64,000 nucleotides of DNA from Candidatus Heimdallarchaeota archaeon (GTDB lineage: Archaea > Asgardarchaeota > Heimdallarchaeia > Heimdallarchaeales > Heimdallarchaeaceae), in the NCBI GenBank assembly GCA_018238545.1, contig JABCTC010000003.1:58876-122875 (forward strand), written 5' to 3'. The notes beneath the pieces are model-generated. The model ran no database searches, had not been told where the DNA came from, and was given only the letters and a program-made list of their open reading frames with translations. Below are positions 18,763 through 28,076 of the stretch, one piece after another. Numbering within the stretch: position 1 is the first letter of the stretch; every line of letters begins with the position of its first letter. The position numbers were made by a program, and so were the translations under genes.

Positions 18763-20298
18763 TTATGCTTTTAGTCCTTTTCTAGCTTTTTCCAAAGCTC
18801 TATCTGGATCAGAATTATATTCTTGAATAACAGACGCTACATCTTCGAAGTATCTGATACGTTTCTTAACCATCCATCGGAGAATAGTTTTTCTTCTTTC
18901 TAATTCATCGAAGATATCTTGTTCTTCCAATCCTGTTATTTCCATAATTTTCTCGAGAACGTAACTTCTCCCAAAGTAGATGAAAGTATCATCTTTTGGA
19001 TTCCACTGGAACAATTTATTTGTCAGTATTTCTTCTGTTACGGGGTCAAGACCAATCAATTCTGTTATTGATTGGGTTCTACGAGCAAATTTAGATTGCA
19101 ATCGGACTTTACGAATAACATGGATTAAATCAAGAGATTTCATCATTGAACGTGGAATATTCATTGGTTTACTTTCTAATCTGTGGATGATACCTTCAAC
19201 AGAGTCACCATGAATAGTTCCCAGACCTCTGTGACCTGTACTCATTGCTTGGAACATAGCATAAGCTTCACCACCACGGATTTCTCCCACGATAATATAG
19301 TCAGGTCTCTGTCTCATGGCCGCACGAAGCAATTCATACATAGAAATCTGACCTCTTCTGTATCCAGTTTCAGTCGCTTCACCGAAACCTGAACGCACGA
19401 CACTTGGTATCCAGTTCTCGTGTGCAAGATTCAATTCTGCTGTATCTTCAATGGTTATAATCTTCAAATCTGGTTTAATCATCATAGATATGGTATTTAG
19501 TAGAGTGGTTTTACCAGCTGCAGTGCCCCCTGCAATGAGAGTGCTGACATTGTGTTCCATTGTGAACCAATAATATGCAGCTATGTCTAAATCTATTGTA
19601 TTGTATAGAATAAGATCTGTTATTGTGAATGGATCTGCTTTGAATTTTCTTGCTGTGAATGTAGATCCTCTTTGAGTAACTTCTTTTCCATAAGTTAGTT
19701 GGATTCTACTACCATCTGGTAGAGAAGCATCCAACAGTGGATTAGCTATACTAATATGTCTGTTTGCTCTTTGAGCCAATTTTATGATGAAACTATCCAA
19801 AATTTCTGCATTGTCAAAAGAAACATTGGTAGAAATAGATTCATATTTCCTGTGCCATACATAGATTGGGATACCTATGCCGTCACATGAGATGTCTTCT
19901 ATATTTGGATCTAACATAAAAGGTTGGATTTTTCCGTAACCTATAAGATCTCGAGCTAGATAATACATGATTTTCTCAAATTGTGATTCATTTAGTGAAA
20001 TACGATATCGTTTAATTATATCAACAATTTTCTTTTTAAGAAACTCTTCAGCTTTTTCTGTAGATTTTAAAACGGAAAGATCAACATCAAGTTCATCAAT
20101 CATAATATCCAAGATTTTCTTGTAGATTGCTTGTTCTTTGCTGTCAAGTGGGATTTCAACAACCATATATTGTGTTCTTTTAGAAACTGGGTCAGTTTGG
20201 ATTAGTACATAGGAAAATGGAGGACTGACAGGATATGTTTCTTCAAGAATCGGAACAGCAGCTGTATCAGTAAAAGCTTCGCCTGTATCTTCTTGCAT
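18763..20298 (-). CDS. Type IV pilus assembly ATPase (TadA/VirB11/ArlI family)
   Basis: DPNIEDISCDG, Walker A GGTAAGKTT, IEDTAEL, RQRPDYIIVGEIRGGEA, TGH...TIH. Confidence 0.95.
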   Translation of the reverse strand: MQEDTGEAFTDTAAVPILEETYPVSPPFSYVLIQTDPVSKRTQYMVVEIPLDSKEQAIYKKILDIMIDELDVDLSVLKSTEKAEEFLKKKIVDIIKRYRISLNESQFEKIMYYLARDLIGYGKIQPFMLDPNIEDISCDGIGIPIYVWHRKYESISTNVSFDNAEILDSFIIKLAQRANRHISIANPLLDASLPDGSRIQLTYGKEVTQRGSTFTARKFKADPFTITDLILYNTIDLDIAAYYWFTMEHNVSTLIAGGTAAGKTTLLNTISMMIKPDLKIITIEDTAELNLAHENWIPSVVRSGFGEATETGYRRGQISMYELLRAAMRQRPDYIIVGEIRGGEAYAMFQAMSTGHRGLGTIHGDSVEGIIHRLESKPMNIPRSMMKSLDLIHVIRKVRLQSKFARRTQSITELIGLDPVTEEILTNKLFQWNPKDDTFIYFGRSYVLEKIMEITGLEEQDIFDELERRKTILRWMVKKRIRYFEDVASVIQEYNSDPDRALEKARKGLKA

Positions 20299-20407
20299 AA
20301 AATATTATTATGATTTACTCTTTTTAAATGTATTTTTCATATTAGATGTAAAGTTAATCAAAAAAACTGTTTGTGGACTAAAATTTAAGAAAAAAATAAG
20401 AAGTTTT

Positions 20408-20872
20408 TTAGTCTTCTAAAATTATGTTACTGGTTATACCATTATAAGTGAATCTTACTCTTGGAACTTCTCCCGTACTTTCTATTAATCCTGATATTGA
20501 AATACTTTCAGGAGATATTAACAATGATACTGTTACAGAAACATCTGTATTACCAATTAAGCTTGCTTTTAGAGAGTAAGTTAGATTATTGAAAATTACT
20601 TCTATTTTATATTCTTCTTCTTGTATTTGTTCTGGAATAGCCAACATTATATGTATGTCAAGCTCTGTTGCACCTTGAGCTATTTGCTGTTGTGCACTCT
20701 CCTTGAGACCATATATTGATTCAGCAATGTTTTGGAGAATATTTTCCATTCCCGTTTCTATGGCCCTGTCTTCCATAGAATTATTTATCGAAATCATTGT
20801 AACAGAAATCCCTCCAATAGCTAGGGATCCAACAAGAAGTATTGATAGATACATAATATATTCGCTTGGCAT
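20408..20872 (-). CDS. Pilin-like protein (N-terminal hydrophobic helix, no basic leader)
   Basis: MPSEYIMYLSILLVGSLAIGGI; IPEQIQEEEYKI resembles archaeal minor pilins; lies between a pilin and the ATPase. Confidence 0.6.
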   Translation of the reverse strand: MPSEYIMYLSILLVGSLAIGGISVTMISINNSMEDRAIETGMENILQNIAESIYGLKESAQQQIAQGATELDIHIMLAIPEQIQEEEYKIEVIFNNLTYSLKASLIGNTDVSVTVSLLISPESISISGLIESTGEVPRVRFTYNGITSNIILED

Positions 20873-20881
20873 TTTATTCTC

Positions 20882-21739
20882 CTATGTCAATGTTACAGAT
20901 ACTAACATGTTTATTATATTTATTCTAATTAAATGGCTTATAAAAGCTGGGTTAGCTGGATAGTATATTGGATACTCGTATTGGAAAAAACCTCCACCAT
21001 GTAATATACGAATCTCACTATAAATATCATTTACAAAGCTTACGTCCTCTAGCTCTTGCTTTTCAGTTCCTAAATAATTTAACTGCATTGTTACAAAATG
21101 AGCAGTAGTTCTTTCTTGTGAAGTTTCATTTAGGAATAATTTAATATTAATTATATCAAGATTATAGATTTCGGTAGCTCCTTCTGTTGTGTAATGTGTT
21201 GATAAAACATATCTGTAGTAAAGTGCTAAATCTAAATAATTCGAAGCGTACACCGATCTTGTTGCATTAATTACAGTAATATCATTGTAAAGGGTACTGG
21301 AACCGTTTAAAAATACGTAATCTTGATTTTCAGGACCAACAATATATCTATGCTCTCCTACATCATAATCAGCTACAGCTGTACTTCTGTGCACAATTCT
21401 TGTAATATTTTCCTCAAAAAGGAGTTCGTTCTGTGCCCCGGTTACATCTTTGAGTAGAAATATGACTAACCAGCTTGAATCAACATATAGTTCCCCTATT
21501 TCTTGGTTGAAGTAAAACTGTCTATCGCCTGGTGGTGGGCTATTGACGAGGTCTTGTATCGTGGCATCTAGTGCGACATAATACAAGTTGTTGCTGTTGT
21601 TGTAACTTTTATCTTTGAATCCGTTGATACTAGGCATCATATACACCAATGATATGCCTATTGCAGCGGTAGTTAATACAAACATCAATATAATTGCAAC
21701 AATTGGAGAAACCGCTCGTTTTTTCTTCATGAATTTCAT
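20882..21739 (-). CDS. Pilin/archaellin-type protein with class III signal peptide
   Basis: KKKRA-VSPIVAIILMFVLTTAAI, a canonical prepilin peptidase site. Confidence 0.85.
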   Translation of the reverse strand: MKFMKKKRAVSPIVAIILMFVLTTAAIGISLVYMMPSINGFKDKSYNNSNNLYYVALDATIQDLVNSPPPGDRQFYFNQEIGELYVDSSWLVIFLLKDVTGAQNELLFEENITRIVHRSTAVADYDVGEHRYIVGPENQDYVFLNGSSTLYNDITVINATRSVYASNYLDLALYYRYVLSTHYTTEGATEIYNLDIINIKLFLNETSQERTTAHFVTMQLNYLGTEKQELEDVSFVNDIYSEIRILHGGGFFQYEYPIYYPANPAFISHLIRINIINMLVSVTLT

Positions 21740-22070: not shown

Positions 22071-25000
22071 ATGACTGCAATCGAATTAACTAAAAATGCT
22101 TTAATAGTTTTAGAAAAACGCTATCTGTTACGCGATGAAAACAAGAAACCGTTGGAAACACCAGAAGGGTTGTTTAAACGCGTAGCGGATTTCATAGGAG
22201 AAACAGATGAAGAAAAAGAGAAATTCTTTGAATTGATGGCCTCACTAAAGTTCCTTCCAAATTCTCCTACGTTAATGAACGCAGGCACTAAGCTAGGAAT
22301 GTTGTCGGCTTGTTTTGTCCTTCCAGTAGAAGATGATATGACATCGATATTTGATGCAGTGAAGCATGCAGCTTTAATTCAACAAGGGGGAGGCGGGACA
22401 GGTTTTAGCTTCAGCAAAATTAGACCAACAAATGATGTGGTTAAGACAACTGGAGGAGTAGCTTGTTTCCCTTCATCTGTTCGCATTCATACAGATAAAG
22501 GATTAATGAAAATAGACGATATAATGAAATTTAATGGCTCAATCAAGGCTCTTACTCATAAAGGTTTTCGCAAAATAACTAACAAATATGAAAATGGAAT
22601 AGCTACAATCTATGAAGTAGAAGTTTCGAATGGTTATGTTTTGAGAACAACTTCTAATCATAAATATTCAACGATCAAACAAGGTAATATAATCTTAAAA
22701 CCTTTATCTGAACTTAAAGAAGATGATCAACTACTTCTTCTTGCAAATGAAGTGGAAGAAAACAGTCCTAGTGTCATAGCATTAACAACTAAAATATCTG
22801 AAAATGAAGATTATTCAATCGAACTAGATGAAGATTTAGCCTATTTGATAGGTCTAACCTACGCTGATGGAAATATTGTAAATGATGGTCGTCATTATTC
22901 TATCAATATTTCTTTAAATATAAATCAGAACGATGTAATTGACAAAATTAGAAATATTTCTAAAAAAAGATTTGATTATGATATCAAGGAATACAAGAGG
23001 GAAAAATTTAACAGAGTAGAATTAAGAATTCATGGAAAAAAATATGTGAAACTTTTAGAAGAGAACCAACTTCTAAAAGAGAAGTGTGAGAAAATAAAAA
23101 TTCCTGAGAAAATATTTCAGAGCCCATTTAAAGTTGTTTGCTCATTTATTGCTGGCTATTTTGATGGAGACGGTAATGTTGGAACGGATGGTAGAATAAG
23201 TATCAAAACAGTTTCTAAGCAAATGAGTGATGATTTTGCATTAATAGTTACAAGATTGGGTGTTTTGACTACTAGTTTTCGGGATGAATCTAATTTTGTA
23301 ACTAGAAATAACAAGGTGTCATACAGACTATCCATTCCTACAGCAATATTCAAAGAAAGGTTTGTACGATACATCTCTAAATATTCCATGAAACTTCGAG
23401 ACTATGAATTAAAAAAAGGATCGACAAATAGAAAGTTTTCATATCCATTCAACATTCTTCAGAAAATAAGTAATCCAAAAACAAGAGCTAAAATCTCAAA
23501 AACCATAATTCCATATAATAATAAAGTTACAACTAGAAAAGCTCTTAGAAGATTGTTAGATGAAAACGAGATCTCTAATCTTTCTCAAAAAGAGTTACTA
23601 TATATAGAAAAACTAGACAAATTATATCCTGTTAAGATAAAAAGAATTACAGAAATAGGAAAAGAGGCAGTTTATAATCTAGAGGTTCATGAGGTAAATC
23701 GTCTTTCTGCAAATGGTTTTTATGTTTCCAATTCGGGACCAATTTCTTTTATGGAAGTTTTCAATGCAGCAACAAATACAATAAAACAAGGGGGGTGTGT
23801 TGCTACAGATAGTTTGATCCGTACAGATACAGGTTCCATACCAATTGGAGAGCTCCTTAACTGTCCACCTTTAAGTGATAATCCTACTAAATCCCTAGTA
23901 TATGATGGCGAAGATTTTAATCATGCATATATTTCCATGGACAATAGCATCGCTGAAGTAATAAAAATAACCACAGATATAGGTATAGAAATAAAACCAA
24001 CTTACAACCATCTTATTGCATCCATAAACGAGGAAGGTGATTTTGTTTGGAAGGAAGCAGAAAATCTAAAGGTGGGTGATTGGTTAGTTATCTCATTAGA
24101 TGGGCACTGTGGGAGCGATGCTTTTCTACCTTCCATCAAAAAACAGCATCATAATGCTAATCCGATAGTTATTCCAGAAAAAATAACACCTGAACTTGGA
24201 GAGATTTTAGGTTTATACATGGCAGATGGTTGTATCAGTACGCAAGGAAGAATAGTTTTCAGTTTAGGCAATAAGGATCCTGACTTAATTCAAAGGATTA
24301 AAGATCTTATGATAAAAACATTTAACCTTCCTGTGGGCATGGTTGATGATAAGAACACTTATTCTGATTTATTCTTTTATTCTAAAGATTTATGCAAATA
24401 CTTTGAGAAAATGAACTGGAAGAAAACCTCTTCAGCTGATGCTTTTGTTCCACAAATCATATTTCAATCCTCTATTTCTGTTGCTAAAAGCTTCATTAGA
24501 GGTTTGTTTTCTGGCGATGGGGATGTACATGTTGATGGTTATCCACGTTATCACTCAATTTCAGGGACTTTAGTGAAAAAACTTCAGCAATTATTGCTTG
24601 GTCTGGGAGTTGTTTCCTCAATTTCGTTAAATAAAAACCGTTTAGGAAGTTTTGGAGACAAACCAATTTATTGTCTCTCCATTGTTCCTGAGAGGAGCTT
24701 GAAAATCTTCAAGGATGAGATAGGTTTCGCAGTTAGTAGAAAAAATAATCTCCTAAGAGAAAGGTTTCCTCAGAAAGCATTTGAATATGTGGACTATATT
24801 CCACATCAAGGTTCTAAATTAAAACAAAAGTATAACTATGTGGGAGCTGGAACTAATAAGGGTATAACTAAACGAGGGGCAGATAAGGTATTCTATAGAG
24901 CGATCTATCATTACATCTCAAAATCCCCTAATTCATACAGAAATATTACAAGAAAGAGACTTCTCATATTATTTGAAAAATTCCCCTTTTTGAGGGAAGA

Positions 25001-28000
25001 TTCACATTTCAAAGAAATTTCGAATCCAAGATACTATTATTCCCAAGTTCGTTCTATTGAAAAAGAAGATTGCTATACTATGGATATCGAAGTATCAGGT
25101 TCAAATAAATTTGTGGCAAATGGTGTATTAGTTCATAACCGTCGTCGTGGAGCGAACATGGGCATTCTCAGAGTTGATCATCCTGATATTCTCGAATTTA
25201 TTTCCTGCAAAGAAGATCAAACTAAATTAACTAATTTCAACATCTCTATTGCAATAACAGATGTTTTCATGAAAGCAGTAGATGAGAACAGTGATTATGA
25301 TTTAATAAATCCTAGAAATAAAGAAATTGTCGGCAAACTAGATGCAAGAGGAGTTTTTGATAAAATAGTAGAAATGTCCTGGAAAAATGGAGAGCCAGGG
25401 ATGGTTTTCATCGATAGAATAAACAGAGACAATCCAACACCAGAAATAGGAGAAATTGAGAGCACGAATCCTTGTGTGACAGGTGATACTCTTATTTCAA
25501 CTGAAAAAGGATTAATGAGGATGGAGAAGCTAGTAGAGCAATATGGAGAAGGGGGCATAGCAATTGCTACAGACAATCGTGTTCCTGTTCAAGTTCCCAA
25601 TGGTGATGGAACTGTTAGTCTGATGGAAGTTAAAGAAAAAGGTGTAACTCTAAGACCAATTACAAGAGCTTTTTCTACAGGTATAAAAGACGTTTATAAA
25701 CTTGTTACAAAAGCAGGCTACGAGCTTAAAGCTACAGCTGATCATAAAATGGTAACCAATGAAGGTTGGGTTGAACTCAAGAATCTTGATCCAGCCAAAC
25801 ATCAGATCTTGCTACAGTCGGGAAAAGGATCATTTAATTCTTCGTATGATTTACCCTTTGAAGTACAAAACAATTTTATTGGTAAAAATGGTAGGTCTTA
25901 TTCCTTTAACTTTCCAACAAAATGGTCTAAAGAACTAGGTCAAACATTAGGTTGGCTTATAGGTGATGGATGGTTACGGGCAGGAGACAAAAATTGTCGT
26001 GTTGGGTTTACTTTTGGTGAAAGAGATAAGAAAATTATGTGGCATCTCAAACCCTTCATTAACAAGTGGTATGGTTCAGAAATAGAGGAAATTAAAAGAA
26101 AGAATAACGTTTATCATCTTTCTTACCATTCGAAATATTTTGTAGAATTTTTCAAAAAATTAGGCGTTAAACCAGTCAAAGCAGGTGAAAAGGTTGTTCC
26201 AGAAACAATATTTACTGCTCCTGAAGAAGCAGTAATTGGTTTCTTACAAGGATTATTCAGTGCAGATGGAACAGTAAATTATAGAGAAGATCATTCATCT
26301 TATGTCAGATTGACATCCAAATCAAGATTGCTCTTGAGTGAAGTGCAGATATTATTAGCTAATTTTGGAATTAAATCCAGAATCTATAACAGAAGTAGAA
26401 AAGCAAGGCAAGTATTCAATTATATCTCAAAATCAGGAGAAAAAAGAAACTACATCAGCGATGGTATCTGTTTTGAACTAGAGATTTCAAGAAAAAGTGT
26501 TTTACGCTTCTTATCAGAGATAGGATTTCTTCAAGGATTACATAAAAAGAAAATAGTTAAGTTTTCTCATAAAAATTTCAGAGAAGATATCTATCTTGAG
26601 AAAATCAAATCAATCAAAAAAGTAGGTAAAGAAAGAGTATATGATTTAACCGAACCAAAAACCTTAACCTTCATTACAGGCGCTCTAGTGACCGTTGATT
26701 GCGGCGAACAACCACTTTTGTCCTACGAATCTTGCAATTTAGGTTCTATCAATCTTCTTAAGCACGTCAAAGATTCTGCTCTTGATTGGTCTCTTTTAGA
26801 GGATTCCATTCGTTTAGCTGTTCGTTTTCTTGACAATGTTATTGACAGGAATCAATACATTCTTCCTGAAATTGAACACATGACTAAAACCAACCGCAAG
26901 ATCGGTCTTGGCATCATGGGCTTTGCTGATGTTTTGGTCTCTCTTGGCATTTCTTATAATTCTAAAAAAGCTCTAGATTTAGCAAATAAAATTATGTCTT
27001 TCCTTCAAGAAAAAGCAAGAGATGAATCATCCAAACTGGGTAAAGAACGTGGTAATTTTCCTAATTTTGAGAAGAGTATTTACAAGGATAATTATGAATA
27101 CATGAGAAACGCTACAACAACTACAATTGCCCCAACTGGGACTATATCCCTTATAGCTGGATGCTCCAGTGGAATAGAACCTTATTACGCAATAGCTTTT
27201 ACTCGCAATGTCCTAGATGGCAAGAAATTGTTTGAAGCTAATCCGCTTTTTGAAGAACAATTAAAAGCAAAAAATATTTACTCTGAGGAACTTCTAGAAA
27301 AAGTTTCAAGTACAAACTCAATCCAAGAATTAGAAGAAATACCAAAGAAAATACGACAGCTGTTTGTAACTACTCACGATATAACTCCTGCAGATCATAT
27401 CGAAATGCAAGCAGTCTTTCAAGACTATGTTGACAATGCCGTCTCAAAAACTATCAATTTCTCTACTACAGCAACTAAAGAAGATATAGCTGAATCCTTT
27501 TTACTTGCCTATAAGAAGGGTTGTAAAGGAATAACAGTCTACCGAGATGGTTCGAGAAAATATCAAGTATTATCAACAAAGAAAACTGAAGCAAAATCAA
27601 AGTTGGAAGATCAAATTAGGCACATAGAAAAACTTGAACCTCGAGAAAGACCTGAGATAACTATTGGTCAAACTCACAAGATAAGAGCAGGTTGTGGTAA
27701 TCTCTATGTTACGGTTAATCAAGATGATGAAGGGGTCTGTGAGGTTTTTGTGCAAGTTGGTAAAAGTGGTGGGTGTATAGCAAGTCAAAGTGAAGCGGTA
27801 GGTCGGTTGATTTCCTTATCCCTTAGATCTGGGGTAAAAGTTGAATCTGTAGTAGATCACCTCGCTGGTATAAGGTGCCCCAGCCCTAACTTCTATCAAG
27901 GTAAAACAGTCTTGTCTTGCGCTGATGGTATATCTCAAGTTTTAGCAAATTACATTAATGGTGATCACGTTGTTAAGCATAACGGACTAATCGCTTGTCC

Positions 28001-28076
28001 TGACTGTGGTGGGATGTTAGACTTCGCCGAGGGGTGCTATACTTGCAGACAATGTGGTTTCAGTAAGTGTGATTAG
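22071..28076 (+). CDS. nrdJ: Adenosylcobalamin-dependent (class II) ribonucleotide reductase with three inteins (mature about 721 aa)
   Basis: FLPNSPTLMNAG, LSACFV, GGGTGFSFS, RRGANMG, TNP/CGEQPL, TTIAPTGT, GCKGITVYRDGSR, C-terminal TSCPD-like domain and Zn ribbon. Confidence 0.97.
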   Translation: MTAIELTKNALIVLEKRYLLRDENKKPLETPEGLFKRVADFIGETDEEKEKFFELMASLKFLPNSPTLMNAGTKLGMLSACFVLPVEDDMTSIFDAVKHAALIQQGGGGTGFSFSKIRPTNDVVKTTGGVACFPSSVRIHTDKGLMKIDDIMKFNGSIKALTHKGFRKITNKYENGIATIYEVEVSNGYVLRTTSNHKYSTIKQGNIILKPLSELKEDDQLLLLANEVEENSPSVIALTTKISENEDYSIELDEDLAYLIGLTYADGNIVNDGRHYSINISLNINQNDVIDKIRNISKKRFDYDIKEYKREKFNRVELRIHGKKYVKLLEENQLLKEKCEKIKIPEKIFQSPFKVVCSFIAGYFDGDGNVGTDGRISIKTVSKQMSDDFALIVTRLGVLTTSFRDESNFVTRNNKVSYRLSIPTAIFKERFVRYISKYSMKLRDYELKKGSTNRKFSYPFNILQKISNPKTRAKISKTIIPYNNKVTTRKALRRLLDENEISNLSQKELLYIEKLDKLYPVKIKRITEIGKEAVYNLEVHEVNRLSANGFYVSNSGPISFMEVFNAATNTIKQGGCVATDSLIRTDTGSIPIGELLNCPPLSDNPTKSLVYDGEDFNHAYISMDNSIAEVIKITTDIGIEIKPTYNHLIASINEEGDFVWKEAENLKVGDWLVISLDGHCGSDAFLPSIKKQHHNANPIVIPEKITPELGEILGLYMADGCISTQGRIVFSLGNKDPDLIQRIKDLMIKTFNLPVGMVDDKNTYSDLFFYSKDLCKYFEKMNWKKTSSADAFVPQIIFQSSISVAKSFIRGLFSGDGDVHVDGYPRYHSISGTLVKKLQQLLLGLGVVSSISLNKNRLGSFGDKPIYCLSIVPERSLKIFKDEIGFAVSRKNNLLRERFPQKAFEYVDYIPHQGSKLKQKYNYVGAGTNKGITKRGADKVFYRAIYHYISKSPNSYRNITRKRLLILFEKFPFLREDSHFKEISNPRYYYSQVRSIEKEDCYTMDIEVSGSNKFVANGVLVHNRRRGANMGILRVDHPDILEFISCKEDQTKLTNFNISIAITDVFMKAVDENSDYDLINPRNKEIVGKLDARGVFDKIVEMSWKNGEPGMVFIDRINRDNPTPEIGEIESTNPCVTGDTLISTEKGLMRMEKLVEQYGEGGIAIATDNRVPVQVPNGDGTVSLMEVKEKGVTLRPITRAFSTGIKDVYKLVTKAGYELKATADHKMVTNEGWVELKNLDPAKHQILLQSGKGSFNSSYDLPFEVQNNFIGKNGRSYSFNFPTKWSKELGQTLGWLIGDGWLRAGDKNCRVGFTFGERDKKIMWHLKPFINKWYGSEIEEIKRKNNVYHLSYHSKYFVEFFKKLGVKPVKAGEKVVPETIFTAPEEAVIGFLQGLFSADGTVNYREDHSSYVRLTSKSRLLLSEVQILLANFGIKSRIYNRSRKARQVFNYISKSGEKRNYISDGICFELEISRKSVLRFLSEIGFLQGLHKKKIVKFSHKNFREDIYLEKIKSIKKVGKERVYDLTEPKTLTFITGALVTVDCGEQPLLSYESCNLGSINLLKHVKDSALDWSLLEDSIRLAVRFLDNVIDRNQYILPEIEHMTKTNRKIGLGIMGFADVLVSLGISYNSKKALDLANKIMSFLQEKARDESSKLGKERGNFPNFEKSIYKDNYEYMRNATTTTIAPTGTISLIAGCSSGIEPYYAIAFTRNVLDGKKLFEANPLFEEQLKAKNIYSEELLEKVSSTNSIQELEEIPKKIRQLFVTTHDITPADHIEMQAVFQDYVDNAVSKTINFSTTATKEDIAESFLLAYKKGCKGITVYRDGSRKYQVLSTKKTEAKSKLEDQIRHIEKLEPRERPEITIGQTHKIRAGCGNLYVTVNQDDEGVCEVFVQVGKSGGCIASQSEAVGRLISLSLRSGVKVESVVDHLAGIRCPSPNFYQGKTVLSCADGISQVLANYINGDHVVKHNGLIACPDCGGMLDFAEGCYTCRQCGFSKCD
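22464..23732 (+). mobile_element. Intein 1 (423 aa) with LAGLIDADG homing endonuclease
   Basis: GGVA|CFPSSVRI ... TTSNH ... LIGLTYADG, FIAGYFDGDG ... GFYVSN|SGP. Confidence 0.93.
23796..25139 (+). mobile_element. Intein 2 (448 aa) with LAGLIDADG endonuclease; +1 residue is Arg
   Basis: KQGG|CVATDSLI ... PTYNH ... LGLYMADG, FIRGLFSGDG ... GVLVHN|RRRGANMG. Confidence 0.92.
25473..26699 (+). mobile_element. Intein 3 (409 aa) with LAGLIDADG endonuclease; C-terminal Asp
   Basis: STNP|CVTGDTLI ... ATADH ... LGWLIGDG, FLQGLFSADG ... VYDLTEP...LVTVD|CGEQP. Confidence 0.93.

Follow-up and report, generated by a model that had tools for sequence, protein, structure and literature searches.

Intein 2 of the NrdJ precursor is followed by Arg

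We analysed a 64,000-nucleotide stretch of DNA from Candidatus Heimdallarchaeota archaeon (GenBank assembly GCA_018238545.1, contig JABCTC010000003.1, positions 58,876 to 122,875; hereafter the window, whose numbering is used throughout). On its + strand, an open reading frame (ORF) of 2001 aa (22071..28076) encodes a class II (B12-dependent) ribonucleotide reductase (RNR), NrdJ, with a C-terminal TSCPD domain; close relatives of this precursor bear the name Candidatus Heimdallarchaeaceae. The 2001 aa comprise three LAGLIDADG inteins and a host protein of 721 aa once the inteins are removed. Here, we focus on intein 2 (23796..25139, 448 aa, on the + strand like all features of the gene), which combines a HINT domain with a LAGLIDADG endonuclease and is inserted in loop 2 of the RNR without a nucleophile at +1, the C-extein's first residue. 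The DNA at 23784-23798 reads aaa caa ggg ggg / tgt at the N-terminal junction (KQGG/C), and the DNA at 25131-25151 reads gtt cat aac / cgt cgt cgt gga at the C-terminal junction (VHN/RRRG), both in the same ORF. An Arg directly after an apparently intact intein, as stated in the original prediction from this DNA, is therefore borne out, and the same junction is seen in independent assemblies. The predicted span of 23796-25151 was right at its start, but the intein ends at 25139, since four extein codons had been included.

The motifs that had been called intact are all present (Cys1, Thr69/His72, Asp144, Asp241, Asp430 and His447-Asn448). Their conservation is given for 42 diverse members of the nucleophile-less lineage described below. 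Cys1, the N-terminal nucleophile (23796..23798), and His447-Asn448 of block G (VHN, 25131..25139) are 100% conserved. Block B (TYNH, 24000..24011) has Thr69 in 100%, Asn71 in 95% and His72 in 90%, while in block F (TMD, 25077..25085) Thr428 is conserved in 95% and position 430 is Asp or Glu in 96%. The two LAGLIDADG motifs (24192..24236 and 24483..24527) carry Asp144 and Asp241 at their catalytic positions, conserved in 90% and 95%, respectively. On the host side, Gly-1, Gly-2 and Gln-3 of the N-extein end of loop 2 (KQGG, 23784..23795) are invariant among the 42. The first C-extein residue aligns to residue 206 of T. maritima NrdJ, so that the +1 codon CGT (25140..25142) corresponds to R206 and the +2 Arg (25143..25145) to R207, the invariant loop-2 substrate-binding arginine, in agreement with the proposed insertion in loop 2 of a class II RNR. 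Matched by motif, the +2 Arg is R298 of E. coli, which binds substrate in loop 2, and loop 2 transmits RNR specificity (PMC8772380). An AlphaFold model of intein 2 had a mean pLDDT of 90.3, and its best Foldseek matches were TliVMA (7QSS, E 8e-27) and PI-PfuI (1DQ3, E 4e-21).

All three described intein classes use Cys, Ser or Thr at +1. Intein 2 has what defines an intein, namely an in-frame HINT fold at a conserved host site for which intein-free alleles exist. Of the class 1 features, it has Cys1, the block B Thr-x-x-His and the His-Asn end, but it carries Arg where Cys/Ser/Thr is expected at +1. Class 2 is defined by Ala1 with a Cys+1 nucleophile, whereas intein 2 has Cys1 and Arg+1. Class 3 inteins have no position-1 nucleophile and use a WCT triplet with a block F Cys, whereas intein 2 has Cys1 and belongs to a lineage with Asp/Glu rather than Cys at the block F position. 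Intein 2 does show the feature that marks type A bacterial intein-like (BIL) domains, a His-Asn end without a +1 nucleophile.

Arg is the native host residue at +1

A mistake in sequencing or assembly would need to change only one base at +1, as CGT is one base away from TGT or AGT, and near-identical independent assemblies served as the test of this codon. The HN/R junction is identical in three other assemblies (intein 99.6-99.8% identical) and in five more at about 96%. In 11 other genomes, whose orthologues are about 53-76% identical, +1 is Arg (CGT, CGC, CGA, CGG or AGG) or Lys (AAA). Intein-free Asgard alleles read QGG-x-RRGA, where x is R (11), K (6) or T (4). The same residue in eight independent near-identical proteins, together with the five Arg codons of the orthologues and the empty alleles, leaves an error as a practically negligible explanation. 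Because the empty alleles carry R, K or T at the +1 position, exact excision would restore the normal loop, which supports the claim that removing the intein restores loop 2, and by comparison with these alleles Arg is the native host residue. A shifted junction or a nearby extein nucleophile is ruled out: the empty alleles fix the register, and no conserved Cys/Ser/Thr was found at +1 to +12 of the C-extein in the lineage alignment.

Archaea splice bulge-helix-bulge (BHB) introns, which lends general support to removal of the element at the RNA level, or to recoding by editing of the +1 codon. However, none of the 13 offsets examined in 12 orthologues showed a complete central 4-bp helix, the +1 codons range over CGN, AGG, AAR, ATA and ATT, and the catalytic residues are conserved at the protein level, all of which makes an RNA-level route highly improbable.

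A lineage of loop-2 inteins without a +1 nucleophile

Tabulating the +1 residues of homologous inteins had been set beforehand as a test of the prediction, and the table showed recurrent K, R, I, M and V, not uniformly Cys/Ser/Thr. All 120 best homologues occupy the same loop-2 site, with K (89), R (16), I (7), M (1) or T (7) at +1, so that +1 is non-nucleophilic in 113/120. A profile search added more distant inteins with K (12), R (4), V (1), T (22) or S (10) at +1; a Gly+1 for P0188 in this tally was a parsing artefact of an empty site and was discarded. Among the metagenome loci with both junctions in frame, 35/73 have K/R/I and 38/73 have T/S at +1, and no in-frame stop codon was found in the 73. 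At least 125 database protein entries combine both junctions with a non-nucleophilic residue at +1 (K, R, I, M or V). By record name, the sources of the lineage include Heimdallarchaeaceae, Promethearchaeota, Odinarchaeia, Micrarchaeota, Aenigmarchaeota, Woesearchaeota, Bathyarchaeia, Methanoperedens, Methanosarcinales and Thermoplasmata. T, S or C at +1 at the loop-2 site occurs in no lineage member.

Some individual members have features of their own. In P0139 (L150:1332-4667), the insertion point lies one codon upstream, after KQG, and +1 is Ser; a dUTPase gene lies next to it on a contig that may be viral, and either a shifted insertion or a reversion may explain this case. One divergent lineage member lies on a virus-like contig. 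Two loop-2 inteins that have diverged strongly and carry Lys or Val at +1, P0215 (L067:8001-13748, with the virus-like gene content PolB, thymidylate kinase and dCTP deaminase) and P0165 (L151:61-6054), sit on a long branch and could be of separate origin, misplaced by long-branch effects. The G029 orthologue (L015:1501-2643) has an internal deletion of 67 aa after the endonuclease core, P0285 misses most of block F, possibly as an assembly artefact, and in the Odinarchaeia member P0013 Glu replaces the block B His, a change seen in 7% of the lineage. No mini-inteins of the lineage were found in a small search of shorter proteins (6 matches). The viral contigs searched gave only two Ser+1 inteins, and the annotated phages searched gave only distant inteins, with at most 24% identity among the best matches listed.

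Origin, selection and mobility

In the trees, the inteins without a +1 nucleophile fall on a single branch (FastTree 0.997 and 0.993; Shimodaira-Hasegawa-like approximate likelihood ratio test (SH-aLRT) 99), which holds when 52 inteins from other sites are added (SH-aLRT 97). Their sister group is most likely a set of Thr+1 inteins at the same site, with support of 89-100 in three trees (89 with the 52 other-site inteins); the relation was absent in one FastTree run with only two, long, outgroups. These were quick trees without bootstrap, and the lineage is likely but not certain to derive from a canonical intein at the same site. Immediately ahead of the penultimate His, 30/30 of the Thr/Ser+1 same-site inteins have Ser/Thr, versus Val/Ile/Ala in 42/42 of the nucleophile-less inteins, and the block F H/N-T-Y pattern is lost in the latter. 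These two changes count as one evolutionary event, not as repeated evidence, and would fit the loss of residues that served the +1 hydroxyl.

Pairwise ratios of nonsynonymous to synonymous substitution rates (dN/dS), taken where dS was not saturated, were about 0.08-0.22 for the HINT domain and about 0.13-0.23 for the homing endonuclease, which indicates purifying selection on both. Since Cys1 and His-Asn are both fully conserved, the chemistry at both ends of the intein is under selection. As expected of a homing intein, both LAGLIDADG motifs have catalytic acidic residues and are under selection. Within the genus, the site is patchily occupied (2 occupied, 7 empty). Intein and host trees conflict in some well-supported placements (P0012 and P0026); in an approximately unbiased test for horizontal spread, one clade of hosts was not rejected (p = 0.24). 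Homing of the lineage is likely.

Processing of the precursor

The RNR exteins have the class II features, which are the barrel, the redox Cys pair, the Asn-x-Cys-x-Glu finger loop and the loop-2 Arg. The host catalytic Cys, Glu, Gln and Arg are all intact, with the catalytic Cys at 26700, Glu at 26706 and the second Cys at 26733 (26700..26735), and the other redox Cys at 22311. No class I small subunit accompanying NrdJ was found in the genome. A second functional RNR, which would have spoken against the prediction, was sought as NrdD, the class I small subunit NrdB or a monomeric RNR, and none was found in this metagenome-assembled genome (MAG), which is 91.8% complete. Two single-contig genomes (G026 and G029) likewise yielded no NrdD, NrdB or monomeric RNR, and the sole RNR found in each bears the intein. 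The enzyme is apparently essential for the host.

Because the intein is under selection, the host catalytic residues are intact and no other RNR was found, it is very probable that the element undergoes self-processing and that an active enzyme results. The incompleteness of the MAG leaves some room for an intein that stays attached at one or both ends, or for a dead gene in a cell that relies on deoxynucleotide salvage or an undetected RNR. However, such a state is very unlikely given the purifying selection on HINT and endonuclease, the intact catalytic residues, the results from the single-contig genomes and the persistence of the lineage in many archaeal groups.

In type A BIL domains, which have no +1 nucleophile, ligation has been proposed to occur by attack of the freed alpha-amine on the N-terminal thioester (PMC4031507). 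For the nucleophile-less lineage, our best explanation, held with somewhat better than even confidence, is that the +1 side-chain nucleophile is no longer needed and that the exteins are joined by direct aminolysis. Cys1 would form a thioester with Gly-1, with the block B Thr/His assisting; Asn448 would cyclise without a branched intermediate, releasing the alpha-amine of Arg+1; and the freed amine would attack the unhindered glycyl thioester directly to give a native Gly-Arg bond. The exteins may co-fold as the RNR barrel, which would keep both ends of the short loop near each other, and the pKa of the amine may be lowered by Arg residues nearby. Direct aminolysis is favoured because both termini are selected, no substitute extein nucleophile is present, the acyl donor is glycine and the exteins are expected to co-fold. 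Three points weigh against it. The conservation pattern fits double cleavage equally well, and sequence data cannot separate the two; BILs without a +1 nucleophile give mainly cleavage products (PMC4031507, PMC7664689); and Gly-1 reflects the host, since it is shared by Thr+1 inteins and empty alleles. Aminolysis and double cleavage are the two alternatives that the original prediction offered, and its interpretation is partly supported.

The main rival is double cleavage without ligation, in which the Cys1 thioester would be hydrolysed and Asn448 would cyclise; the product would be an active RNR of two chains with a nick in loop 2. This outcome requires the same conserved residues as aminolysis and is in line with the predominant cleavage in BILs, with a loop 2 that is flexible and disordered without ligands (PMC8772380) and with phage Aeh1 NrdA, which functions as two chains (PMC3045599). 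However, the nick would lie one residue ahead of the substrate-binding Arg, the two-chain Aeh1 enzyme depends on special tails for its activity (PMC3045599), and no gene split at loop 2 was found among 12 orthologous genome matches or 73 metagenome loci, in searches that favour intact copies. Ligation is favoured because the nick would separate Gln from the substrate-binding Arg in the loop that transmits specificity, and we regard double cleavage as unlikely.

The acyl group could also pass from Cys1 to another nucleophile, either an internal Cys/Thr or the host active-site Cys, before aminolysis. Cys23 would be a candidate, as it is lineage-specific (71% of the lineage versus at most 20% of Thr/Ser+1 inteins), and His104 is present in 83%. 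However, Ala, Ser, Gly or Val replaces Cys23 in whole sub-clades, block F position 4 is Asp/Glu and not Cys, Thr428 is also present in Thr+1 inteins, and nothing tested supports a role for the host cysteine, so that a relay is quite unlikely. As an obligate nucleophile, Cys23 was rejected: it is invariant in 11 close orthologues, yet reaches only 71% across the lineage.

Taken together, these results suggest that an unorthodox route of maturing this RNR probably exists. It is slightly more likely than not that direct aminolysis defines a further mechanistic class of true inteins, natural homing elements that ligate their host efficiently with any of several +1 residues (K, R, I, M or V) and can therefore settle in alleles from which canonical inteins are barred.

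Significance of the nucleophile-less lineage

Inteins of all three classes are held to require Cys/Ser/Thr at +1, and this requirement is what chiefly restricts protein ligation with inteins. The lineage described here is real and potentially represents a new mechanistic class. We found no published description of a nucleophile-less loop-2 lineage in the literature searched, whose coverage was incomplete (InBase and most subscription journals lay outside it). A 2018 survey of eukaryotic inteins treats the +1 nucleophile as a requirement, and one supplementary remark in it queries an unrelated intein without one. Many archaea retain the lineage under selection in their sole RNR, and this natural, probably efficient system could serve to test nucleophile-free splicing, the Thr+1 inteins of the same site providing the controls. 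If these inteins ligate, the intein mechanism would be widened and a candidate ligation tool with relaxed junction needs would be at hand. If they only cleave, a class II RNR would tolerate a break in its specificity loop, which to our knowledge would be new.

Other features of the locus and the genome

Intein 1 (22464..23732, 423 aa) ends in SN with Ser at +1. In P0286 and P0288-P0290, four close relatives with about 96% identity in intein 2, it is missing, which points to its recent gain or loss. Intein 3 (25473..26699, 409 aa) lies upstream of the radical cysteine and ends in TVD with Cys at +1 (TVD/C), that is, in Asp and without a penultimate His. The Asp end is common to at least eight close homologues, distant homologues terminate in Gln or Asn, and inteins with a terminal Asp or Gln are known variants (PMC4031507). 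Upstream of the NrdJ gene, divergently oriented genes (18763-21739, - strand) include one for a FlaI-like type IV pilus/archaellum ATPase as well as pilin-like ORFs, with Hsp20 coming next; they show no link to intein 2. Elsewhere in the same genome (contigs C59, C114 and C39), inteins were found in a gyrase-A-like gene (Thr+1) and an MCM-like gene (Ser+1), along with two further matches.

Comparison with known systems

The closest canonical relatives of intein 2 are the Thr/Ser+1 class 1 inteins at the same NrdJ loop-2 site (e.g. P0069, P0121, P0124 and P0130; L106-L148), at 32-37% identity. They share with it the insertion after QGG, Cys1, the block B Thr/His, the block F Thr-x-Asp, the His-Asn end and the LAGLIDADG domain, whereas the nucleophile-less lineage has K/R/I/M/V at +1, V/I/A before the penultimate His and no H/N-T-Y. 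TliVMA (7QSS) and PI-PfuI (1DQ3, an RNR intein) have the same overall fold, but they are only 16-20% identical to intein 2, occupy other insertion sites and have a canonical +1 nucleophile. The fragmented NrdA of phage Aeh1 (PMC3045599) is likewise an RNR interrupted by a homing endonuclease and possibly comparable in being active as two chains; however, it is encoded by two genes, has special tails and lacks a HINT domain, whereas the locus of intein 2 is one ORF with a conserved HINT domain.

BIL domains are not known to carry homing endonucleases and are generally located in variable secreted or surface proteins. Type A examples are those of Dassa 2004 and of Aranko 2013, with C. thermocellum BIL4, as reviewed in PMC4031507. 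Like these, intein 2 has a HINT domain with a His-Asn end and no +1 nucleophile, and the same alpha-amine route is proposed for it. In contrast to the mainly cleaving type A BILs, it has an intact LAGLIDADG domain, is located in a conserved active-site loop and clusters with true inteins. Intein 2 resembles a BIL in its predicted chemistry, but its architecture, context and ancestry are those of a true LAGLIDADG intein.

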